A DNA stretch of 64,000 nucleotides, from IMG/VR virus record IMGVR_UViG_3300005613_000008, positions 63,324 through 127,323 of that record; one strand, written 5' to 3'. A model generated the notes under the pieces. That model ran no database searches, was not told the DNA's origin, and was given only the letters and a program-made list of their open reading frames with translations. The DNA is from a virus. Positions 11,554-63,381 of the stretch are shown piece after piece (position 1 is the first letter of the stretch; each line of letters starts with the position of its first letter). A program made the translations under genes and the position numbers.

Positions 11554-12076
11554 AGAATTGAGAGCATTAATCAGAGAAGTGCTTAAAGAGCAAGACGACA
11601 AGATGACCTTAAAGTCTGGTTCAAAGACGCCACAGGCACTTAAAGCTGAAATCTTAGAGACTATCAAGAACATTGATGTGGAAAAAATTAAATCACAAGA
11701 GCTAATGTTCTTAAATCAGATGATTGGTAAAATGTTTGAAATGGCTGCAACCGGAGATCTCGTTAGAGGTCGTCAGGCAATCCAGCGTGCTTTTGGGGTA
11801 ATGTCTAAAGGCGTACCAAAAGAGGAGCCACAACAAACAAGTGAGGGTTATGAGCCGCCCATGATGCATGGTGGCATCGATGACGATGACCATGAAGTCC
11901 AAATGGCTATGTCTGATCTTCATAAACTAGAAAAGTACGCCCCAGAAGTGTCACAACTTGCTTCGCAATACTCTGACCTACCCGGCTGGGTTCAATCAAA
12001 AATTACTCTTGCTGCCGACTATTTAGGTAAAGTTTACCACTATTTAGATGGCAAGCACAATAAAGGAATGGAATAA
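11543..12076 (+). CDS. Hypothetical, putative head-internal protein
   Basis: Starts MKAEELRALIREVLKEQ (motif-like); C-terminal helical module HEVQMA...LPGWVQSKITLAADYL. Confidence 0.65.
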   Translation: MKAEELRALIREVLKEQDDKMTLKSGSKTPQALKAEILETIKNIDVEKIKSQELMFLNQMIGKMFEMAATGDLVRGRQAIQRAFGVMSKGVPKEEPQQTSEGYEPPMMHGGIDDDDHEVQMAMSDLHKLEKYAPEVSQLASQYSDLPGWVQSKITLAADYLGKVYHYLDGKHNKGME

Positions 12077-18516: not shown

Positions 18517-19116
18517 ATGAAACTACTACGAGAATACTACGAACTATGTGAAGGCGGCGTTTGCCAAGACCTTCTTACCGAGGACGAGAAGCGCTTTGTC
18601 TCCAATGGCGGCATGATGCTTACAGGTAAGCTACAAGAAGCAGATGTTCAGAACGGCAACGGTCGTGTTTATCCTTACAAAGTTTTAGCCCGAGAAGTCC
18701 AAAACTACAAGAAACTAGTAAAAGAAAACAGGGCACTTGGCGAACTAGACCACCCTGACGATTCAGTTATCAATCTAAAAAACGCTTCACATATGGTTAC
18801 AGACATTTGGATGGAAGATAAGGCTGTTATGGGTAAGGTCAAGGTTCTCAACACTCCATCAGGTCAGGTTCTCAAGTCTCTCGTAGAGTCAGGGGTTAAA
18901 CTTGGCATCTCTTCTCGTGGTATGGGCTCCGTATCAGAAGGCGCAGGCAAGGTTATAGTCCAAGAAGACTTTCAGCTTATTTGCTTTGACTTTGTATCGG
19001 AGCCATCGACACCAAACGCATTTATGATGCGAGAAGCAAAAGAGTTTAATAATAGAGTATTCACAAAAGCCGACCGAATCAACAGGTTATTAAACGAGGT
19101 ATTAGAAAATGAATAA
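18517..19116 (+). CDS. Prohead core protease (T4 gp21-like)
   Basis: NGRVYP, ALGELDHP (catalytic His), LGISSRGMGS (catalytic Ser), FDFVSEPS. Confidence 0.93.
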   Translation: MKLLREYYELCEGGVCQDLLTEDEKRFVSNGGMMLTGKLQEADVQNGNGRVYPYKVLAREVQNYKKLVKENRALGELDHPDDSVINLKNASHMVTDIWMEDKAVMGKVKVLNTPSGQVLKSLVESGVKLGISSRGMGSVSEGAGKVIVQEDFQLICFDFVSEPSTPNAFMMREAKEFNNRVFTKADRINRLLNEVLENE

Positions 19117-20469: not shown

Positions 20470-20477
20470 ACTATTTA
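20470..20477 (+). promoter_or_regulatory. Putative late promoter (ACTATTTA)
   Basis: Intergenic, 37 nt before the 20507 start. Confidence 0.65.
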
Positions 20478-20506: not shown

Positions 20507-20950
20507 ATGTCTAACTTTATCAAATCCTATCAAGCGAATGTAGGACTTAACCATGTGCCTGCCTATCAGGTTTCAGGACAGCCATTCGCCACAGGGTCCA
20601 TAACTGCTAATCCAGTCACAGGAGATGTAGTAAAGGTTGAGTTTCCATATGTTACTAGATGGGTTAAAATTGTAGCCATTACTGGTAGTGCGAATACTCA
20701 CTTGAGAGTAGGCTTTTCTGAAAATGGTGTTAAAGGCGACAACTACTTTAGATACCTTGCAGGAAACAACTTTAATCACGAAGGTGGTCCATCTGCTCCG
20801 CTTGAATTAAAAGTGAGTGAACTTTACTTCTTGGGTGATAATGGAGCAACAGTTGAATTTGATGTTGTGGCTGGCTTAACTTCTATCCCTAGTTCTCGCA
20901 CCACAACCGATAGTGGTCCAAGCTGGTCAGGCTCTGCTGGGGTGGGTTGA
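20507..20950 (+). CDS. Virion structural protein (beta-rich), first gene of the fibre cassette
   Basis: GGAGG SD; G/S/T-rich beta-strand composition. Confidence 0.6.
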   Translation: MSNFIKSYQANVGLNHVPAYQVSGQPFATGSITANPVTGDVVKVEFPYVTRWVKIVAITGSANTHLRVGFSENGVKGDNYFRYLAGNNFNHEGGPSAPLELKVSELYFLGDNGATVEFDVVAGLTSIPSSRTTTDSGPSWSGSAGVG

Positions 20951-20953
20951 TAG

Positions 20954-21601
20954 ATGGCTCAGTTTGGATGGGCATATGTAAATTGTTCTAGTTCTGGAGG
21001 TACCGCAAATCATGCAGGACCAATCCAGTCTATTCAGTTTTTAACATCTTCCACAGACACAAGCGGGTCATCTAACTTTCTGTATCTAACCTCCAGCAAC
21101 ACTGTTTATCTTTCTGGAACTTTGCAAGTTGTAGGAACAATTACAGCAAGTTCTTTTGTTGTTGATCAAACAGATATTATTTCTGGTTCTACCATTTTTG
21201 GCAACTCTACTGATGATACTCACCAATTTACTGGTTCTGTTTATATTGGTGCTTCAGCAAGTGCTCCTACTTTTCAAGTAGATCCGGTAAACTCTCAAAC
21301 AATCACACAGGGCTTGAGAGTAAATTATAGACAAATTACTTCAGCAGGAACCTCTTCTACTATCGACTACATTCTTGGCTTTGCCGGGGCAGGGGCTATA
21401 GAGTTTAGAATCCACTCTGCTTCTGTTGCAGGTGAAGGTGCTTTAGTATTGGTAAAGGATGAATTATCTTCTCGCGCTGGCGCAATTACCCTATCGGCAT
21501 CTTCAGGTGAAACTATTGATGGTAATTCATTTTATGAAATCACAGGCTCATCTCCAGCAATCAGCCTTTATTCCAATGGGACAAGCTGGTTCGTATTCTA
21601 G
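20954..21601 (+). CDS. Short fibre/decoration protein, paralogue 1 (C-terminal gp9/gp10-like beta domain)
   Basis: SGSTIFGNSTDDTHQFTGS fibre motif; C-terminus LVLVKDE...ITLSAS.GETIDG...ISLYSNGTSWFVF. Confidence 0.65.
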   Translation: MAQFGWAYVNCSSSGGTANHAGPIQSIQFLTSSTDTSGSSNFLYLTSSNTVYLSGTLQVVGTITASSFVVDQTDIISGSTIFGNSTDDTHQFTGSVYIGASASAPTFQVDPVNSQTITQGLRVNYRQITSAGTSSTIDYILGFAGAGAIEFRIHSASVAGEGALVLVKDELSSRAGAITLSASSGETIDGNSFYEITGSSPAISLYSNGTSWFVF

Positions 21602-21619
21602 TAATGGAGAAGGCTGTAG

Positions 21620-22603
21620 ATGGCGAAAAATCACTTAACAGGCAATGTCCAGGCACCAGCCTACTTTGGTCCATTAGGTAACCAACCAGTAGCAAATATT
21701 ATCTCTGGTGCATTTCACGGAGATGGAACGAACGTAACTAACGTTGCAAGAGTTACGGCTAACGATATTAACGATTATGTTGTTACGCTAGGAAATCAGC
21801 CACAGAGTTTGGTCGGAGAACCAAACTTAAGATTTAATGGCTCTCGCCTCTATGTTAATGCACCAGTAACAGCTTCTGCATTACATTTAACTGCACTTCC
21901 TGTTGGAATAGCGACAACAGCCTCTTATCTTGCCCTTGATGAAAATAACAATGTTATTCTTACATCTTCTGTTATAGATACGGGAGCAGAAGGTCAAGGA
22001 CCAATTAATTCAATCCAGATTCATACCGGTTCTAGTGGAATTTCTGGCTCTGCCAACTTTATCTATGATCCCTCAACAAATGTAGTAGAGCTATCTGGCA
22101 ATCTAATAATTTCCGGCAATATTACAGCACACACATTTGATATCATACACACAGATATAATCGAGATCGATTCTTCTGGATCTACAAGATTCGGTGATAG
22201 TAATGATGATGTTCACATTCGCACTGGCTCTTTGTCTATCATGTCTTCATCAGCAGAACAATTCAAAGTAGACATAATAAATAAAGTTACCTCTATCAAC
22301 ACAGGTGTTTCTTTCAATAGAATCTCAACCTCTATAGATTACAATGTTAAGAAATCAAATTACATTATAGGAGTAGATAGCACAAGCAATCCTGTAACAA
22401 TCACCTTGCCTGATGCAAGTACTTTATCTAGCGGTCACACATTTGTCGTAAAAGACGAAGGTGGCGCTGTTTCCAGCAATGCCATTACGATTTCGGCGTC
22501 TGGATCTCAACAAATCGACAGTGTAAATTCGATTGTTTTGGAAGTGCCTTATTCATCTATTCAGCTTTATTGTAACGGCACATCAAAGTTCTTTGTTTTC
22601 TAA
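21620..22603 (+). CDS. Fibre/decoration protein, paralogue 2
   Basis: SGSTRFGDSNDDVHIRTGS; C-terminus TITLPDA...FVVKDEGG...ITISASG.QQID...IQLYCNGTSKFFVF. Confidence 0.65.
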   Translation: MAKNHLTGNVQAPAYFGPLGNQPVANIISGAFHGDGTNVTNVARVTANDINDYVVTLGNQPQSLVGEPNLRFNGSRLYVNAPVTASALHLTALPVGIATTASYLALDENNNVILTSSVIDTGAEGQGPINSIQIHTGSSGISGSANFIYDPSTNVVELSGNLIISGNITAHTFDIIHTDIIEIDSSGSTRFGDSNDDVHIRTGSLSIMSSSAEQFKVDIINKVTSINTGVSFNRISTSIDYNVKKSNYIIGVDSTSNPVTITLPDASTLSSGHTFVVKDEGGAVSSNAITISASGSQQIDSVNSIVLEVPYSSIQLYCNGTSKFFVF

Positions 22604-22625
22604 ATCCTGTTTATGATCATTGTAT

Positions 22626-22632
22626 CTATTTA
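22626..22632 (+). promoter_or_regulatory. Putative late promoter (CTATTTA)
   Basis: Intergenic, before the long coiled-coil fibre gene. Confidence 0.55.
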
Positions 22633-22692
22633 TAATCAAATAAGCAAGCCTATGCGTTTGTTTATCTTAATGACATTATAGGAGGATTTTAT

Positions 22693-24600
22693 ATGTCTAA
22701 TGGTTTTGTTCCCGCAAAGGGTACTCAGGATCCACTCTGGAAGGGTGGTGGTCTTGAGATTTCAGGTTCCGGCGTACTTCGTGTCACCGGTTCCGGTGCT
22801 GGTGGTGAAGATATTCACGCTGATTTCAAGGAACACCTTGGTATCTCTGCTGTTGAGTCTCGCGCTACTGTTCTAGAAGGCGATGTTGTCTCTATCGACA
22901 CCCGCATCACTGACGAAGAGTCTGCTCGCCTCGCTGGTGACAACTCTCTAGAAGCTGCTCTATCTTCTGAGATTTCTGCAACAAACGACGATGTTGATTC
23001 ACTCGACGTTCGCGTCTCAGCCCTTGATTCCGAGCAGGATGCAGATCAGGTTTCTATCGACGCTGCAATTTCTGGTGAGGTTTCTGCCCGCATTGCTGGT
23101 GATGACTCTCTCCAGACACGTCTATCTGCCGAAGAGTCCCGTGCTGGCTCTGTCGAAGTTAGCCTTCAGGGTTCACTAGACGCCCGTGTTTCTGCTCTCG
23201 ATTCTGAACAGGATGCAGATCAGGTTTCTATCGACGCTGCAATTTCTGGTGAGGTTTCTGCTCGTGTCGCTGGCGATGGTTCCCTAGAGACCCGTCTAAG
23301 CGATGAAGAGGTTGCTCGCGCTTCTGTCGATGCTGTCGCATCTGCTGCCCTATCTTCTGAGGCTTCAGAGCGTCTCGCTGGCGATGGCTCTCTTGAGACC
23401 AAGATGGATGCTGCCGATGGTTCACTCACAACTCGCATCTCTGGCGAAGAGTCTGTTCGTCTCGCTGATGATCTTTCTCTCCAGACCCGCCTAAGCACTG
23501 AAGAGTCTACTCGCACCGCCGAGATGGCTTCTAACGATACAGCACATACCTCTCTAGAGACTAAGATTTCTACTGATGTTTCTGCTGCTAACGCTTCTGT
23601 CGATCTTCGCGTTAGTAATGAAGAAGATGCGCGCGCTGCTGCCGATGCTTCACTTACCACTCGCGTAAGCGATGAAGAGGTTGCTCGCGCTTCTGTCGAT
23701 GCTATCGCATCTGCTGCTCTCTCTTCTGAAGAGTCTGCTCGCGTTGCTGGCGATGCTTCACTTACCACCCGTGTTGGCAATGAAGAGAGTGTCCGTGCTT
23801 CTGCTGACGCTTCTATCGTTGCTATGCACGAAGCTGACGAGGTTTCTCTCAACGCTCGTTTGAGCACTGCCGAGTCTCAGGAAGCTGCTGATGTCGCTTC
23901 TCTCGAAGTTGTTGATGGTTCTCTAGAGACCCGTCTAAGCGAAGAGGAATCTACTCGCACTTCCGAAATGGCTTCTAATGATCTAGCACACAGCACAATG
24001 CAGTCTATAGTTCAGTCTGTTGATGGTTCTCTAGAGACCCGTCTAAGTGATGAAGAGGATGCACGCACTTCTGGTGATAATTCTCTCACCACTCGCATCT
24101 CTGGTGAAGAGTCTGTTCGTCTCGCTGACGACCTCTCACTCCAGACACGTCTAAGCACAGAAGAGTCGCGTGCCTCTGCTGCTGAAGGTTCTCTTGAGAC
24201 CCGTCTAAGTGAAGAAGAATCTCTTGCTGTTGCAGAGTTCGCTTCAGTCGATGCCGCAATCTCTTCTGAAGAGTCTGCTCGCATCTCTGGCGATGCTTCT
24301 GTCTTGGCTGCCATCGTTGCTGGTTTCAAGGACATTCAGGTTCTCGGCACCAACACAACCCTAGATAACACTTACACCCACGTTGTTGCTGGTGCTGATG
24401 GTCTAACCTTCACACTTCCAGCCACTCCCGGTGCTGATGAAATCTACTTCATCAAGAACTTCGATGGTGTTGATGCTCAGGTTACAATCGCCGGTAACGG
24501 TAACAACATTGATGGTCAGTCCAGCATCTCTCTAGATGTTCCAAACGCTGCTGTCAAGGTTGTTTACGATAGCGCTACTGACGAGTGGTACATCTTCTGA
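22693..24600 (+). CDS. Long Ser/Ala/Asp/Glu-rich coiled-coil fibre, paralogue 3
   Basis: About 470 aa of SLETRLS.EE.AR...D repeats followed by the same C-terminal domain (TFTLPATP...FIKNFDG...TIAGNGNNIDG...VKVVYD...WYIF); strong AGGAGG SD. Confidence 0.8.
   Translation: MSNGFVPAKGTQDPLWKGGGLEISGSGVLRVTGSGAGGEDIHADFKEHLGISAVESRATVLEGDVVSIDTRITDEESARLAGDNSLEAALSSEISATNDDVDSLDVRVSALDSEQDADQVSIDAAISGEVSARIAGDDSLQTRLSAEESRAGSVEVSLQGSLDARVSALDSEQDADQVSIDAAISGEVSARVAGDGSLETRLSDEEVARASVDAVASAALSSEASERLAGDGSLETKMDAADGSLTTRISGEESVRLADDLSLQTRLSTEESTRTAEMASNDTAHTSLETKISTDVSAANASVDLRVSNEEDARAAADASLTTRVSDEEVARASVDAIASAALSSEESARVAGDASLTTRVGNEESVRASADASIVAMHEADEVSLNARLSTAESQEAADVASLEVVDGSLETRLSEEESTRTSEMASNDLAHSTMQSIVQSVDGSLETRLSDEEDARTSGDNSLTTRISGEESVRLADDLSLQTRLSTEESRASAAEGSLETRLSEEESLAVAEFASVDAAISSEESARISGDASVLAAIVAGFKDIQVLGTNTTLDNTYTHVVAGADGLTFTLPATPGADEIYFIKNFDGVDAQVTIAGNGNNIDGQSSISLDVPNAAVKVVYDSATDEWYIF
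22900..24310 (+). repeat. Intragenic coiled-coil repeats (about 18 aa) with recent DNA-level duplications
   Basis: An identical 53-bp block starts at 23035 and at 23209 (174 bp apart); further near-identical blocks start near 23297/23666 and 23431/24091. Confidence 0.85.
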
Positions 24601-24620
24601 TAACCCTGTAGTCTAAATCT

Positions 24621-24660
24621 TGGGGGCACCTCTTCGGGGGTGCCCCCATTTCGTTTTGTT
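24621..24660 (+). terminator. Intrinsic terminator with UUCG loop
   Basis: TGGGGGCACC-tc-TTCG-gg-GGTGCCCCCA followed by a T-rich tract. Confidence 0.85.
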
Positions 24661-24682
24661 AGTTCTTAAATGGATTCGTGAT

Positions 24683-24690
24683 ACTATTTA
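24683..24690 (+). promoter_or_regulatory. Putative late promoter (ACTATTTA)
   Basis: Immediately after the terminator, 35 nt before ATG 24718. Confidence 0.65.
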
Positions 24691-24717
24691 CGAGTGCTTG
24701 TAGCGGAGAACAAAAGA

Positions 24718-25821
24718 ATGAAAATAAGCAAGAATGTAAAGATCGGAATTACCACCAAGTGTGACGAAAATCTATTTGGAAATGGGCTCAACCAAAACGT
24801 TTGGTTCCTATACAGACTTCTAAGTGGTGCCGGATACGATGTGCATCTAGTGTCGGAATCAAACAAGCATCACGGTAAGAAGCTGATTACCCAAGACATT
24901 CTTCCCTTAACAAAAGAAAATATAAAAGAATACGGCATGATTATGGAGTGCGCTTTTGCTCTTGAAAATGCTACTGCTGATGCTCTAATAGAATCTGGTG
25001 GAGTTCGCATTGGTATTCAGTATGGCAACAGACTCCTAATTGATTTAGAGAACATGCTCTTTAAACCAGATAACGGCGGTATAGGTAAGAAAGACATTCA
25101 TGAAATCTGGTGCTCTCCACACTTTGAGTTCTCAATCCCAGCATTGGAGATCTTAGAGAAAACAGAAATGCATGTTTGCCCCTATGTTTGGAGCCCTGAC
25201 GTTGTTACTCACACTTACATAAACTTTAAGATCAATCCGTTCTTTAAGCCATCTACAAACATCAATAACATTTCATTTTTTGAACCTAACCTAAACATTG
25301 TAAAGTCTTGTATGATTCCCATGATTGTTGTTGAAGATGTCTACAATAGAAGACCAGAACTTATCAATGACGTTTATAACTTTGGTTCACTTAAGCTCGC
25401 AAAGCATAAAACCTTCTTATCGATGGTTAACAAACTAAATCTAAAGAAAGACAAAAAGATTTCTTTTGAAGGTCGCTACAAGTTTGTTTGGGCTCTTCAC
25501 AAAGAGTTTGCTGGCACCATTGTTAGCCATCACTGGATGAACGGGCTAAACTATCTTCAGCTTGAGGCAATGTACTTTGGAACCCCATTCGTCCACAACT
25601 CTGAGTTTTTCAAAGACCATGGTTATTATTTCCCTGAATGGGATGCTAAGGAAGGTTCACGTCAATTAGAGCGCGCTATTGAAACCCATAAGGGCGTCTA
25701 CCTAAAAGAGAGAGAAAGAGACAGAGAAAAACTTTGGGAGTTCCATCCAGACAACCCTAAGAACATTGAAGGCTATTCCGAGCTAATTGAAAATGCTCTT
25801 GCAAAGCATTTGAGAAAATAA
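24718..25821 (+). CDS. DUF2827-like protein, predicted GT-B glycosyltransferase
   Basis: KIGIT...NGLNQN, EIW.SP, PYVWSP, FFEPNLNIVKSCMIPM, IVSHHWMNGLNYLQLEAMYFGTPFVHNS, GYYFP match my recollection of DUF2827. LEAM..G.P.V is the GT-B donor-binding motif. Confidence 0.7.
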   Translation: MKISKNVKIGITTKCDENLFGNGLNQNVWFLYRLLSGAGYDVHLVSESNKHHGKKLITQDILPLTKENIKEYGMIMECAFALENATADALIESGGVRIGIQYGNRLLIDLENMLFKPDNGGIGKKDIHEIWCSPHFEFSIPALEILEKTEMHVCPYVWSPDVVTHTYINFKINPFFKPSTNINNISFFEPNLNIVKSCMIPMIVVEDVYNRRPELINDVYNFGSLKLAKHKTFLSMVNKLNLKKDKKISFEGRYKFVWALHKEFAGTIVSHHWMNGLNYLQLEAMYFGTPFVHNSEFFKDHGYYFPEWDAKEGSRQLERAIETHKGVYLKERERDREKLWEFHPDNPKNIEGYSELIENALAKHLRK

Positions 25822-25832
25822 AGAAATAAAAA

Positions 25833-25839
25833 CTACTTA
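25833..25839 (+). promoter_or_regulatory. Putative late promoter variant (CTACTTA)
   Basis: Intergenic, 29 nt before the 25862 start. Confidence 0.55.
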
Positions 25840-25861
25840 CTACAAAAAATAGAGGTTTTAT

Positions 25862-26986
25862 ATGGCTTATAATGTTATTAAGGGAAATATTGAGTTCAGC
25901 GGACCAACTCAAGGCACAATTGAGGATATGGTTGATGTTCATAGTGATCAAGTAATCGGTGGAACTAAAACATTCTCTCAAATGGTCACAGCATCCTCTG
26001 GTCTGTCAGCTTCTATTTTTTATGGCGATGGATCAAACCTAGATGGTATCACCTCTGGACCTATTGATACTTACGATAACTCTGGTAATAACAGAATTAT
26101 AACTTCTGTTGATTCTACCACAATCCAAGGCGAAGCGAACCTTACCTTTGACGGCACTTCATTGTCGGTAACTGGAGACGTAACTGCTTCTGCTAATGTT
26201 TCGGCATCAGCATTCCAAGGTGACGGCAACAGTCTAACAAACATTGGTCCTTCTAGTTTAAACTTAGGTGCAGGATTGCAAGATCTTGCTGGAAATTTAG
26301 AACTAAACTTAGATACAGCCTCTGGTCTTCAAATAGCAGCAGGTGGTTTAAAAGTATATCTAAGTACGTTATCTAACGCTGATCCACTTGCTGATGGTGA
26401 TTTGTTTATTGCAGACCAGAGTGGAAATAAAAAAGCAACAGCATTACAGCTATACAACTACGTTGATGGCAAATTATCAATCCCGATCGTAGCTGGTGCA
26501 AATACTCAGATTCAATTTAATGATGCTGGGGATCTCGGCGCAAGCACCAATCTTGCTTTCAATTCTGCTACAAATATTTTTTCTACTGTTACTGCAAGTT
26601 TTACTGGAGATGTAGAGATTGGTGGGAATCTAGAAATAAGTAAAGAATTAACAGTTACAGGTTCTACCAGAACAGCCGCAAGGTTTCATTCGGTTTCTGT
26701 TCAGACAGCTAGTTACTCAGCAACAAGTGGCGATGAAATAATTCTTATGAATAGTTCCTTGGCAACAACTGCAAGCCTGCCTCCAATTTCTAGCACTCTT
26801 GTTGGACTTACCTTGACAGTTAAAAGAACTGGAACCGGCGAGGTACAAGTTTCTGGAAGTAATGGTATAGATACTCAGCCAACAATAAATCTAACACCAC
26901 AGGGTGCTTTTGTCAAGATTATAGCCGCAGATTTCGGAGGCTCTAGTTATGGTTGGGCTATTATAGCTAAAAGCGGCTCTTTCTAA
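25862..26986 (+). CDS. Fibre/decoration protein, paralogue 4
   Basis: QVIGGTKTFS and GDGSNL fibre motifs; C-terminus TASLPP...LTVKRTGTG.VQVSG.NGID...VKIIA...WAII. Confidence 0.65.
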   Translation: MAYNVIKGNIEFSGPTQGTIEDMVDVHSDQVIGGTKTFSQMVTASSGLSASIFYGDGSNLDGITSGPIDTYDNSGNNRIITSVDSTTIQGEANLTFDGTSLSVTGDVTASANVSASAFQGDGNSLTNIGPSSLNLGAGLQDLAGNLELNLDTASGLQIAAGGLKVYLSTLSNADPLADGDLFIADQSGNKKATALQLYNYVDGKLSIPIVAGANTQIQFNDAGDLGASTNLAFNSATNIFSTVTASFTGDVEIGGNLEISKELTVTGSTRTAARFHSVSVQTASYSATSGDEIILMNSSLATTASLPPISSTLVGLTLTVKRTGTGEVQVSGSNGIDTQPTINLTPQGAFVKIIAADFGGSSYGWAIIAKSGSF

Positions 26987-26993
26987 TGCTTTT

Positions 26994-27001
26994 ACTATTT
27001 A
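26994..27001 (+). promoter_or_regulatory. Putative late promoter (ACTATTTA) for scaffold/capsid operon
   Basis: Intergenic, 55 nt before ATG 27049. Confidence 0.65.
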
Positions 27002-27048
27002 TTGTTACTAGTTAGAATGAAAAACTAATGTTATAGGAGTTTTTGTTA

Positions 27049-28287
27049 ATGTCTTCATTATTAGAGCAAGCAATCGTAGACGCCAAAGCGTTGAAGGAAG
27101 CCGCAATGAAAAATGCGGAAGCAACCATTATTGACAAGTATTCAGAAGAGGTCAAATCAACCTTGAACCAGCTTCTTGAGCAGGATGAGTTGGAAGCACT
27201 ACTTGGTGGCACTGACGAGACCACCGCAGATGCAGAAGCAACTATGGATGAAGAAGTCGAGAAAGATGAGATTGTTGAAGGCGTTCCAGATGCTTTTACC
27301 GAAGACATTTCTGAACTTGGCGGTGTAAACGAAGGCGATGAGACAGAAGTTACTGTTGATTTTGCCGAACTTGCCGAGGCTCTAAAAGAACTTCGCGAAG
27401 GCGTCGAAGAAGAGACACTCAACGAAGAAGGCTACGATTGTATCAAGGATATGATGGCCGAAGGTATGTCCCGTAGAGAAGCAATTGCCGAGTGTAAGAG
27501 AATGGGCAGACTTGACGAGGCAGAAGAAGAAGATCCAATGGACGAAGAAGTCGAACTTGACGAAGAGTCTATTATGGAGATGGTTGCTGCTATGCTTTCC
27601 GGCGATTCTGCTGCCGCAGAAGAGGAAGCAGACGCCGACCAGATGCAGATGGCTGGTCTCGAAGAAGCCGAAGAGGAAGAAGAAGTTATGGAAGAAGGTG
27701 AAGATGAAGATCTTTACGAAGAACTTTCTGATTCTATGCTCGATGCAATCGTAGAAAAACTTACTGTAGATATGGGTGCTACGCTCTCTGGTTGGGCAGG
27801 TCGTTCTGACGACGATATGAAACACCAGATGGAGCTAGAGATGGCACATCGCCGCAGCACCGAAGTTGCAGAAGAACTCGAAGCACTCAAGAAGGCTCAA
27901 GAAGAGCTAGTCTTCGAGAACAAGAAACTAAAAGAAACACTTTCTAACTACAAACAAGTAGTTAACTCACTTAAGGAGAATGTGCAGGATGTAAATCTTA
28001 GTAATGCACGTCTTCTTTACACCAACCGCACGCTAAGAAATACCTCCCTGAATGAGCGACAAAAAGAAAGAATTGTCGAAGCGATTTCTAAAGCTGGTTC
28101 GGTTGAGGAAGCAAAGACAATCCACGAGACACTTCAAAGCACAGTGGCGTCCACTCCCAAGAGAGGACCACAATCACTAAGCGAAGCTATCACCCGTCCA
28201 ACTTCCATTATCCGTGCATCCCGTAAGGAAGAACCCAAAGTGGATCCCTTCCAGGCGAGAATGCGTAAACTAGCAGGTTTAGAATAA
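27049..28287 (+). CDS. Prohead core scaffolding protein (gp22-like)
   Basis: Highly acidic coiled coil directly upstream of the capsid gene; C-terminus RMRKLAGL; AGGAG SD before ATG 27049. Confidence 0.75.
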   Translation: MSSLLEQAIVDAKALKEAAMKNAEATIIDKYSEEVKSTLNQLLEQDELEALLGGTDETTADAEATMDEEVEKDEIVEGVPDAFTEDISELGGVNEGDETEVTVDFAELAEALKELREGVEEETLNEEGYDCIKDMMAEGMSRREAIAECKRMGRLDEAEEEDPMDEEVELDEESIMEMVAAMLSGDSAAAEEEADADQMQMAGLEEAEEEEEVMEEGEDEDLYEELSDSMLDAIVEKLTVDMGATLSGWAGRSDDDMKHQMELEMAHRRSTEVAEELEALKKAQEELVFENKKLKETLSNYKQVVNSLKENVQDVNLSNARLLYTNRTLRNTSLNERQKERIVEAISKAGSVEEAKTIHETLQSTVASTPKRGPQSLSEAITRPTSIIRASRKEEPKVDPFQARMRKLAGLE

Positions 28288-28313: not shown

Positions 28314-30119
28314 ATGTCTAGTATTGTTGAAAGACTCACCGAGGGTGTAGTCAACCGTGATATGCGTGCCGAGTCCCACGCTCTTCTATCCAAGTGGAAG
28401 AAAACAGGTCTTCTTGAGGGTCTAGAGGGTGAGCGTCAGGCTAACTCCATGGCTCGTCTACTTGAGAACCAAGCCAAGGAGCTACTCCGTGAGGCTAACT
28501 CTATGTCTTCTGGTGATGTCGAAGGCTTCGCTGCCGTCGCATTCCCCATTGTTCGTCGCGTTTTCGCTGGTCTTATCGCCAACGATCTCGTCAGCGTTCA
28601 GCCCATGAGCCTACCTTCTGGTCTCATCTTCTTCCTCGATTTCACTTTCTCTGGTGATCTCGGTGATGGTAATACTCAGGATCGTCGCTTCGGTAACGTT
28701 GCTGATAAGTCCATCTACGGTACCGATCAGGTTGGTTCACAGGTTACCGGTGGTGTTGATCTCGTTGATACTCGCGGTGGTGACCTTTCTGGTCCTCGTT
28801 CTTCTGCTCGCGGCTACGCCTACGCTAGCCCAAGTGGCTCCGCTATCCTTAGCTCCTCTGCTACAGCATTCACCTCTTCAGGTTGGCAGATTGGCGCTGA
28901 GACAGCAGCACAGCGTAAGGCTGTACAGTTCGACCCAGATGTCATGCAGTTCTCTGGTTCTAGCACTGCTCATTACATCCTAGAATTGCAGCTTCCAAAG
29001 GCAGCCACACAATGGTCTTCTGGTGACTGGGCTTATCTAGACTACAACAACCTCTCAGCGGTTGATGTCATGGACCTAACCGATCTAGACGATATCACTG
29101 ACGGTGCTAGCGGAGGTTACACCTCTTCTAACACTTCACGTCTACGTCGTCTAACTCAGGTGACCGATACTCTTGTTAAGCTTTACTTCTTGACAACTGT
29201 TGACACTACTGCTACTGCTGATGGTACTGGTGGCAGCGCGAACCTAAACGTAGAATTCCCAATTGTTGATCAGTTCCAAGCTGGTGCCAACACTTCACTT
29301 GGCGCGGTTCGTGGCGATACTCCTTGGGGTCTTGAAGGCAACGCTGACATCCCTGAGATCGACATCAAGGTCGATTCCATCGCTGTCACCGCTCAGACCA
29401 AGAAGCTCAAGGCTAAGTGGACCCCCGAACTCGGTCAGGATCTCAACGCCTACCACAACCTCGATGCCGAGGTTGAGCTTACCAGCCTTCTCTCCGAGCA
29501 GATTGCTCTTGAGATCGACCGCGAGATCCTTGCTGACCTCGTTAACGGTGCTACTGCTGGTACCCGCTACTGGTCACGCGCTCCCGGTCTCTTCGTTGAT
29601 TCCAACGGTAACGAGATTGGTGCCAGCGCTAAGGCTCCCGACTTCACTGGTACTGTCAGTGAGTGGTACGAGACCCTCGTTGAGACCATCAACGATGTCT
29701 CTGCTCAGATCCACCGTAAGACTCTTCGTGGTGGTGCTAACTTCGTCGTCTGCGGACCTGAAGTTGCCAACATCCTTGAGTTCACCGCTGGCTTCCGCGC
29801 AAGCGTCACTCACACCGACGAGAAGGGCTCCATCGGCGCTCTCAAGGTTGGTTCACTCAGCAAGAAGTTTGATGTCATTGTTGACCCCTACTTCCTACGC
29901 AACGTCATCCTAGTTGGTCGTCGCGGTAGCTCCTTCCTCGAAAGCGGCTACGTCTACGCTCCCTACGTCCCGCTACAGACTACACCCACAATCTTCGGAC
30001 CAGAAGACTTCGTACCGCGTAAGGGCGTTATGACCCGTTACGCCAAGAAGATGGTTCGTCCAGATATGTACGGTCTAGTCGTCGTTCGTGGTCTCCTAGG
30101 TGAGTCTGGCGGCTCCTGA
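28314..30119 (+). CDS. Major capsid protein (T4 gp23-like) with a large insertion
   Basis: AFPIVRRVF..LIANDLVSVQPM..PSGLIFF, KKLKAKWTPELGQDLNAYH.LDAEVEL..LSEQIALEIDREIL, YAPYVPL, KGVMTRY. Confidence 0.95.
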   Translation: MSSIVERLTEGVVNRDMRAESHALLSKWKKTGLLEGLEGERQANSMARLLENQAKELLREANSMSSGDVEGFAAVAFPIVRRVFAGLIANDLVSVQPMSLPSGLIFFLDFTFSGDLGDGNTQDRRFGNVADKSIYGTDQVGSQVTGGVDLVDTRGGDLSGPRSSARGYAYASPSGSAILSSSATAFTSSGWQIGAETAAQRKAVQFDPDVMQFSGSSTAHYILELQLPKAATQWSSGDWAYLDYNNLSAVDVMDLTDLDDITDGASGGYTSSNTSRLRRLTQVTDTLVKLYFLTTVDTTATADGTGGSANLNVEFPIVDQFQAGANTSLGAVRGDTPWGLEGNADIPEIDIKVDSIAVTAQTKKLKAKWTPELGQDLNAYHNLDAEVELTSLLSEQIALEIDREILADLVNGATAGTRYWSRAPGLFVDSNGNEIGASAKAPDFTGTVSEWYETLVETINDVSAQIHRKTLRGGANFVVCGPEVANILEFTAGFRASVTHTDEKGSIGALKVGSLSKKFDVIVDPYFLRNVILVGRRGSSFLESGYVYAPYVPLQTTPTIFGPEDFVPRKGVMTRYAKKMVRPDMYGLVVVRGLLGESGGS

Positions 30120-63202: not shown

Positions 63203-63381
63203 AAAGTAGAATTATGTATACTTGCGGAACAGCTTATTGTCACGATCCAGACATCACATTATATGATAATATCGAACTCCTTAAAAAAAGCAAAAGTTGT
63301 TGGAAAGAATGCGGCATTGTTGAAATCAGTCTGGCAAAAATTAAGTATGTTGAAGAACCGAATCTAATGGGTCAGCGATGA
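63199..63381 (+). CDS. Small accessory hypothetical protein
   Basis: ATGA overlap. Confidence 0.6.
   Translation: MKSRIMYTCGTAYCHDPDITLYDNIELLKKSKSCWKECGIVEISLAKIKYVEEPNLMGQR

Follow-up and report, generated by a model that had tools for sequence, protein, structure and literature searches.

Why should a tailed phage keep the gene of a glycosyltransferase-like enzyme among fibre genes, in the middle of its head module? This question is raised by a stretch of 64,000 nucleotides (hereafter the window) that forms the right-hand 64 kb of the 127-kb IMG/VR virus record IMGVR_UViG_3300005613_000008, positions 63,324 to 127,323. The record was judged about 70% complete and comes from a myovirus distantly related to T4. 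Between its protease block and its scaffold gene, this phage has an insertion of six genes: an open reading frame (ORF) of 147 amino acids (aa), four fibre-like paralogues and the gene of a DUF2827 protein. The answer towards which the evidence leans, if only modestly, is that the DUF2827 protein primes O-glycosylation of the neighbouring 635-aa repeat fibre.

The DUF2827 protein and its predicted fold

The protein encoded between the third and the fourth fibre gene matched Pfam family PF10933 (DUF2827) with 237.5 bits (E 2.8e-70; gathering score 25 bits). The match is full-length, with residues 18-365 aligned to profile positions 2-362 of 362. The original prediction, made from the DNA letters without database searches, had placed a DUF2827-like enzyme of GT-B appearance at this position, and no other block of the family is as conserved as the motif it had quoted, NYLQLEAMYFGTPFVHNS. 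An AF2 model based on a 22-sequence alignment reached a predicted local distance difference test score (pLDDT) of 90.9, and its top Foldseek matches were GT4 enzymes, with E-values of 1e-10 to 1e-11. In VIA-align the model superposed on BshA with Z 24.1 (root-mean-square deviation 4.1 Å, 323 residues); Z-scores of 20-24 were obtained for BshA, TarM, MshA and PimA, GlgM was also among the top structures, and more than 800 of the 998 chains scored Z of at least 8, essentially all of them GT-B enzymes. A GT-B fold of the GT4 type is firmly predicted by the model, and the objection that the protein could lack this fold has fallen away.

At the sequence level, a PDB search with the enzyme gave no match, and PF00534 (Glycos_transf_1) had no match for it at E up to 0.1; a PF00534 search of the phage's own genome found three other genes and not this one. 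DUF2827 is therefore GT4-like in fold and a separate family in sequence. Comparison within the DUF2827 family showed H135, E189, K196, N278, H293 and N294 to be invariant and R253 and E283 to be near-invariant; this includes a Lys/Arg/Glu set (K196, R253, E283) conserved in the C-terminal half. The fold gives the enzyme class and not the acceptor, since both the protein-modifying SdgB (PDB 7vfm; Z 20.5 over 325 residues, 12% identity) and T4 DNA alpha-glucosyltransferase (Z 20.3) are matched.

The repeat fibre and its pairing with DUF2827

The third fibre gene encodes the 635-aa protein that had been described as extremely Ser-rich in a regular repeat. This description holds: Ser accounts for 95 of the 635 residues (15%) and Ala for 14.5%, and the identity autocorrelation peaks at lags 18, 36 and 54, with 141 identities at lag 18 above a background of about 45. 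Approximately 25 copies of an 18-residue repeat with the consensus R-A-S-A-D-x-S-L-T-T-R-L-S-x-E-E-S-A were found, and the repeat region contains 84 Ser and 32 Thr in 475 residues. No Pfam family was matched at E up to 0.1, except for two weak and unrelated matches. The AF2 monomer, used for secondary structure only given its pLDDT of 58, shows helices at residues 67-515 and a beta domain at 560-635, with small beta domains flanking the helix. Orthologues, which range from 639 to 983 aa through repeat number, hardly differ in their N-terminal 60 residues. As modelled, the protein looks like a long, probably trimeric, alpha-helical stalk between a conserved domain at the N-terminus and a beta domain at the C-terminus.

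The repeat length of 18 corresponds to exactly five turns of a helix. When the repeat is placed on an ideal helix, R1, D5 and E15 come to lie on the face of L8 and L12, and T10, S17, S/A3, S7 and S13 are on the other half, so that the Ser and Thr of the repeats lie opposite the Leu stripe. If the Leu stripe forms the core, each repeat would expose four or five hydroxyls.

A tRNA-Ser with anticodon AGA is encoded by the phage (genome about 11725-11814; L080:726-815). Of the 95 Ser codons of the 635-aa fibre, 66% are TCT; the share of this codon is 52-54% in two other paralogues and 33-35% in the glycosyltransferase and capsid genes. In another virus, a jumbo contig of 316 kb, tandem DUF2827 genes and a Ser-rich repeat fibre have a seryl-tRNA synthetase gene (L021:3751-5070) some 2 kb away.

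Searches with tblastn in 50,697 GenBank phage records gave no match for DUF2827, for the 635-aa fibre or for the 327-aa paralogue. IMG/VR yielded 45 loci with DUF2827, and in at least eight viral lineages the enzyme occurs together with an 18-mer-repeat fibre, either adjacent (taken as within 10 kb) or on the same contig. The fibre is adjacent in the window's own clade (L001-L009), where DUF2827 is 83-90% identical to that of the window. At 46-47% identity (L015-L018, L020) it is about 5 kb away, and a homologue of the 147-aa gene is present; in L021 (42%, plus a tandem copy of 31%) it is 1 kb upstream; in L022, L024-L027 and L029 (tandem pairs of 34-37%) it is 1 kb downstream on the opposite strand; and in the giant-virus metagenome-assembled genomes (MAGs) L037 and L038 (28-32%, a fused double DUF2827) it is about 8 kb away. 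A sister clade (L010, L012, L013, L023) has both genes on one contig with DUF2827 about 60 kb from the fibre, which retains its head-module place in L012 and L023, the only contigs of this clade where the place could be read. In L019 the two genes are about 100 kb apart on one contig.

The reciprocal test started from the fibre and used a strict degenerate DNA pattern for two consecutive repeats. This pattern was found in 13 stretches among 2.9 million IMG/VR contigs, seven of which are on DUF2827 contigs and the rest on fragments of at most 25 kb. A metagenome search with the same pattern gave 22 stretches, including three new adjacent pairs (L085, L087, L095) with DUF2827 of 26-31% identity. 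With the window capsid as query, no gp23-like capsid was found in the contigs of L017, L021 (judged 94% complete), L022 and L026; taken only as a hint of differing backbones, this indicates that the pair is not confined to one virus family. The co-occurrence of DUF2827 with fibre genes that the original prediction needed is found in many viral lineages, and of the four paralogues the 635-aa repeat fibre alone tracks the enzyme across them. The other fibre paralogues are confined to the window's clade.

Homologues of DUF2827 are also present in giant-virus MAGs and in a relative among cultured algal viruses, Pyramimonas orientalis virus 01B. Three Prochlorococcus single-cell assemblies (L050, L052, L055) carry homologues of 25-29% identity on short contigs.

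Cassette layout, fibre paralogues and transcription signals

The + strand block of the window encodes terminase, portal, S77 prohead protease, scaffold, gp23-type capsid, sheath, tube, hub and tape measure. The capsid protein shows at most 48-55% identity to any GenBank phage, and the best named relatives by capsid are Flavobacterium phage immuto, Microcystis phage Mel-JY01 and Rhodothermus phage RM378. Of its 601 aa, about 200 residues (about 105-320) form a Ser/Thr/Gly/Asp-rich stretch that is covered neither by Pfam Gp23 nor by matches of other phages, and the corresponding region has the top GC content of the window (0.517). This stretch may be a surface insertion domain.

The order of genes originally described, with Ser/Thr/Gly-rich fibre paralogues and a glycosyltransferase between the prohead protease and the scaffold and capsid genes, and with the enzyme between the third and fourth fibre, was confirmed (Table 1).

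Table 1. Features of the fibre cassette and its borders in the window
Feature	Position	Strand	Basis or remark
Prohead protease S77	18517-19116	+	Three small ORFs after it, then the 147-aa ORF
ACTATTTA promoter-like motif ahead of the fibre cassette	20470..20477	+	37 nt before the ATG at 20507
147-aa ORF, first cassette gene, virus-only family	20507..20950	+	No Pfam/PHROG match
Fibre paralogue 1, 215 aa, shared C-terminal domain	20954..21601	+	BLASTP, leave-out HMM
Fibre paralogue 2, 327 aa, shared C-terminal domain	21620..22603	+	phrog_972, phrog_20556, leave-out HMM
635-aa repeat fibre, predicted as likely glycosylation substrate	22693..24600	+	18-residue repeats, shared C-terminal beta domain
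Intrinsic terminator after the repeat fibre	24621..24648	+	12-bp stem, 9 G-C pairs, TTCG (UUCG) loop, T-rich tail
ACTATTTA promoter-like motif of the DUF2827 gene	24683..24690	+	28 nt before the ATG
DUF2827 predicted glycosyltransferase, 367 aa, predicted GT-B fold	24718..25821	+	PF10933, AF2, Foldseek, VIA-align
Fibre paralogue 4, 374 aa	25862..26986	+	C-terminal domain related by hhalign
ACTATTTA motif ahead of the scaffold gene, end of cassette	26994..27001	+	Motif scan
Scaffold	27043-28287	+	Adjoins the cassette
gp23-type capsid	28314-30119	+	After the scaffold

For the 147-aa protein, Pfam and PHROG gave no match and the Atlas neighbours were exclusively viral hypothetical proteins; its homologues (40-43% identity) adjoin fibre genes in the lineage of L015-L018 and L020. 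Some close relatives carry an extra cassette gene of 717 aa (L003:4123-6276), with an N-terminus like that of the 327-aa paralogue and an unrelated C-terminus.

The four fibres had been proposed to share one C-terminal domain, and a common domain of about 100 residues could be recognized in them. The 215-aa and 327-aa proteins match each other by BLASTP with E 2e-30. Leave-one-group-out tests with hidden Markov models (HMMs) gave E 1.5e-22 for the 327-aa, 3e-10 for the 215-aa and 5.5e-5 for the 635-aa protein, and the 374-aa protein was related to the shared domain by hhalign (probability 84%, E 7e-6) and hmmsearch (E 9e-6). From these scores the paralogy can be taken as real, being weakest for the fourth protein (374 aa). 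Residues 225-324 of the 327-aa paralogue matched phrog_972 (tail fibre proximal subunit, E 8e-7) and also phrog_20556 (baseplate). Because the shared domain bears a weak resemblance to baseplate and tail-fibre families of PHROG (E-values as low as 7e-8) and to a small domain that is repeated close to the T4 gp34 N-terminus (PDB 9x3r, E 0.027), a kinship with tail-fibre and baseplate proteins is suggested despite the location in the head module, as a lead and not as proof. Among orthologues of the fibres, the 374-aa fibre included, the N-termini are conserved and the C-terminal domains are swapped, which fits an N-terminal attachment and a distal C-terminal domain.

The motif ACTATTTA is enriched in the window: it occurs 14 times where 2.4 matches are expected, and 13 of these copies are on the + strand (sites at, for example, 1660, 12018, 12039, 20470, 24683, 26994, 30182, 32895, 50780 and 59115). 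The + strand of the whole 127-kb record contains 22 copies, mostly 23-68 nt before start codons. The T4 late promoter TATAAATA is not enriched in the window (4 matches, 2.3 expected), and the possibility that ACTATTTA is this promoter was rejected, as the two differ. Non-structural operons are headed by ACTATTTA as well, including the operon from PhoH to GlmS, so the label "late" is not applied to it. The "own late motif" first ascribed to the enzyme gene therefore stands as an own copy of ACTATTTA and falls as a late one. A strong terminator separates the 635-aa fibre from the DUF2827 gene, the copy of ACTATTTA comes after this terminator, and no terminator lies between the DUF2827 gene and the 374-aa fibre gene. 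Owing to this arrangement, the DUF2827 gene is assigned its own promoter-like site, from which the 374-aa fibre is probably co-transcribed. The position of the motif at 24683-24690 also favours ATG 24718 over GTG 24694 as the start of the enzyme.

This arrangement bears on which protein would receive the sugar. If the enzyme glycosylated another virion protein, such as the 374-aa fibre as the obvious candidate, one of the other Ser/Thr/Gly-rich paralogues or the Ser/Thr/Gly-rich insertion of the capsid, its sharing of a transcription unit with the 374-aa fibre, from which the terminator cuts off the 635-aa fibre, would be accounted for; all four paralogues are rich in Ser, Thr and Gly, and Freeman and colleagues are said to have reported in 2023 that the glycosylation targets of mycobacteriophages are capsid and tail-tube subunits. 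Such a target is nevertheless unlikely, as solely the 18-mer-repeat fibre travels with DUF2827 into distant lineages and the other paralogues stay within one clade.

Glycan context, other possible roles and known systems

A link between bacterial DUF2827 genes and trimeric adhesins had been stated in the original prediction. It holds, because a Pfam scan of six bacterial (marine) MAG loci showed YadA anchor, stalk or head domains in the Ser/Thr-rich neighbour of DUF2827 in five of them, which marks this neighbour as a trimeric autotransporter adhesin, in agreement with a 2026 preprint in which 327 DUF2827 homologues were found beside such adhesins, often in two or three copies (bioRxiv 10.64898/2026.01.22.700529). 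In the same preprint the bacterial protein was proposed to be a glycosyltransferase. The bacterial loci and the window have in common the Pfam family and an adjacent long, fibrous, Ser/Thr-rich surface protein. They differ in that the phage partner is encoded by the virus within a head module, has a distinct 18-residue repeat and lacks the adhesin architecture: no YadA anchor, stalk or head family was matched by any of the four window fibres in a Pfam scan. By analogy, the window would work like a trimeric-adhesin locus with DUF2827, but it is not one.

In other viruses, DUF2827 is the N-terminal domain of proteins with multiple glycosyltransferase domains. A protein of 2,236 aa (L040:2955-9662, - strand) combines it with GT31, GT32, GT11 and GT47 domains, and one of 1,331 aa (L041:9920-13912, + strand) with PLOD-GT, GT25 and GT47. 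The DUF2827 domain is strung in these two proteins with four to six other glycosyltransferase domains. It is fused to GT2 in L037, and the gene that follows the tandem DUF2827 pairs of L031 and L035 encodes GT25 and GT32-like domains, with GT34 in addition in L031. The N-terminal position in the fusions would fit a priming step.

The phage itself has a sugar operon outside the window (genome 13463-29307; L080:2464-18308), the run being headed by ACTATTTA before PhoH. It encodes three GT4 enzymes, a GT31-like and a GT32-like enzyme, together with PMM, glutamine-synthetase-like, methyltransferase, sulfotransferase-like, epimerase/GDP-mannose-dehydratase-like and GlmS genes. In the sister clade, DUF2827 adjoins an HNH-PhoH-PDDEXK-GT4a-GT4b block that is the sugar-operon block of the window's genome, and DUF2827 is thereby tied to the sugar pathway as well as to the fibre.

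Such a complete glycan toolkit would also suit a phage that remodels the envelope of its host. Enzyme and sugar operon could act on lipopolysaccharide, capsule or a host trimeric adhesin, with superinfection exclusion or release as the result and the link to the fibre being indirect, for example through a fibre that binds the glycan. Transferases encoded by phages that modify the O-antigen are well known, and the adhesins beside bacterial DUF2827 genes are located on the cell surface. We regard this explanation as improbable, given that the recurrent viral partner is a fibre encoded by the virus, even in giant-virus MAGs with presumably eukaryotic hosts and in a cultured algal virus relative, and that the gene is part of the head-module cassette and is preceded by the motif that also precedes structural genes.

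The tandem, divergent DUF2827 pairs that are frequent in viruses and bacteria recall pairs of a catalytic and a substrate-binding protein. DUF2827 could then be a non-catalytic partner of GT-B fold, or chaperone, that binds the fibre and assists its folding or assembly, like GtfB of GtfA/GtfB, with the chemistry left to other transferases. There is little to expect from this idea for the window, where one copy is present and retains the family-invariant His, Lys, Glu and Asn. Finally, a DNA-modifying enzyme like T4 alpha-glucosyltransferase, shielding the phage DNA from restriction, would agree with the fold (Z 20.3) and with the glycosylation of DNA by T4-like phages and many other viruses, but it is very improbable, as both the adhesin link in bacteria and the repeat-fibre link would be left unexplained and the record, about 70% complete, has no match to PF00303 (thymidylate-synthase-like hydroxymethylase), PF00145 (C5-methyltransferase) or PF12851 (Tet/JBP; here a weak negative, the control giving no match anywhere).

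If instead DUF2827 primes the repeat fibre, an active cytoplasmic GT-B enzyme would draw on a nucleotide sugar and attach the initial sugar to hydroxyl groups of Ser and Thr within the 18-residue repeats of the neighbouring 635-aa fibre, before or during the assembly of this fibre into the virion. Donors could come from the separate sugar operon, whose products might also lengthen or decorate the glycan, and the outcome would be a sugar-coated fibre, presumably carried on the particle, that may serve adhesion, shielding from proteases or antibodies, or mimicry. Glycosylation by the phage of its own fibres, in the manner of a bacterial adhesin locus, was the proposal made at the outset, and it is supported by the GT-B fold, the viral co-occurrence and the adhesin link; none of the refuting conditions that could be checked by computation came true.

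Several points weigh against priming of the repeat fibre. No cultured relative carries the cassette; in the cultured relative immuto nothing is situated between the protease and scaffold genes. The pairing is not universal, since the complete contig L032 has tandem DUF2827 and no repeat fibre, and several of the pairing lineages belong to one phage family and are therefore not fully independent. The repeat units were picked by a regular expression, which makes the conservation at positions 7, 8 and 10-12 circular in part; the selection of units did not involve positions 1, 5, 13 and 15-17. The model of the 635-aa fibre is of low confidence, and the hydrophobic-moment test is ambiguous on the buried helix face, the Leu stripe sharing its face with Arg, Asp and Glu. 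The modelled fold of the enzyme, which a DNA-glucosylating enzyme matches about as well as SdgB, does not by itself point to the acceptor.

A wider and more tentative proposal, about which we have some doubt, is that DUF2827 is an O-glycosyltransferase dedicated to the priming of helical, fibrous proteins of the surface, and that enzyme and substrate form a mobile module of two genes that has passed between bacteria (with trimeric autotransporter adhesins as substrate), tailed phages, jumbo viruses and algal giant viruses, with the viral 18-residue repeat acting as a structural sequon.

Phage-encoded glycosyltransferases modify the phage's own virion proteins in mycobacteriophages, according to two papers that cite Freeman et al. 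2023 (PMC12582341, PMC11256854). To that extent the window is predicted to do the same, with the differences that the mycobacteriophage enzymes belong to other families, that the hosts are actinobacterial and that no dedicated repeat fibre is reportedly involved. Giant viruses encode sugar-nucleotide synthesis and multiple glycosyltransferases for virion surface structures, fibrils and capsid (PMC4691112). Virus-encoded sugar genes are common to both, and giant-virus MAGs have DUF2827 homologues, but the window is from a tailed phage; of the only two papers that name DUF2827, neither was about viruses and neither gave it a role in giant-virus systems. As a principle, virion glycosylation is thus already known from mycobacteriophages and giant viruses, and the initial remark that this had not been described as a phage system was too strong.

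A further comparison is with the GT4-type enzymes SdgA/SdgB and GtfA/GtfB, which attach O-linked sugars to Ser-rich repeats in adhesins of Gram-positive bacteria, the staphylococcal SdgB acting on Ser-Asp repeats. The GT-B fold, a repeat substrate, cytoplasmic priming and extension by further transferases would be shared, as far as the phage side is predicted. The DUF2827 enzyme differs by its 12% identity and by having no PF00534 match, and the phage repeat is a helical 18-mer, not a disordered Ser-Asp (SD) or serine-rich repeat (SRR) tract. In outline, the modelled fibre (pLDDT 58) is similar to the T4 fibritin (wac) whiskers, in which a long helical stalk built of segments also connects two small domains, one at each terminus. 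It differs in its period of 18 rather than heptads and in the location of its gene between protease and scaffold rather than in a neck or baseplate block, and the fibritin family was not among the Pfam results for the 635-aa fibre at E up to 0.1.

What appears to be new is the enzyme family, the dedicated repeat-fibre substrate, the occurrence in T4-like and other aquatic viruses, and the parallel between a viral fibre and bacterial trimeric adhesins. If the repeat fibre is indeed the substrate, an uncharacterised family found in adhesin loci of pathogens and in environmental viruses would gain a function and a natural substrate, and phage-encoded virion glycosylation would extend from actinobacteriophages to T4-like phages of aquatic bacteria. 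Enzyme and repeat make a simple pair for testing, as a few 18-mers with one enzyme, and a repeat-specific O-glycosyltransferase is a possible tool for glyco-engineering. Sugar-coated fibres would alter how the phage sticks to hosts, particles and mucus and how it is recognized. Should the wider proposal of a dedicated priming enzyme also be true, mucin-like, heavily sugar-coated virion fibres would be present in abundant uncultured aquatic viruses.

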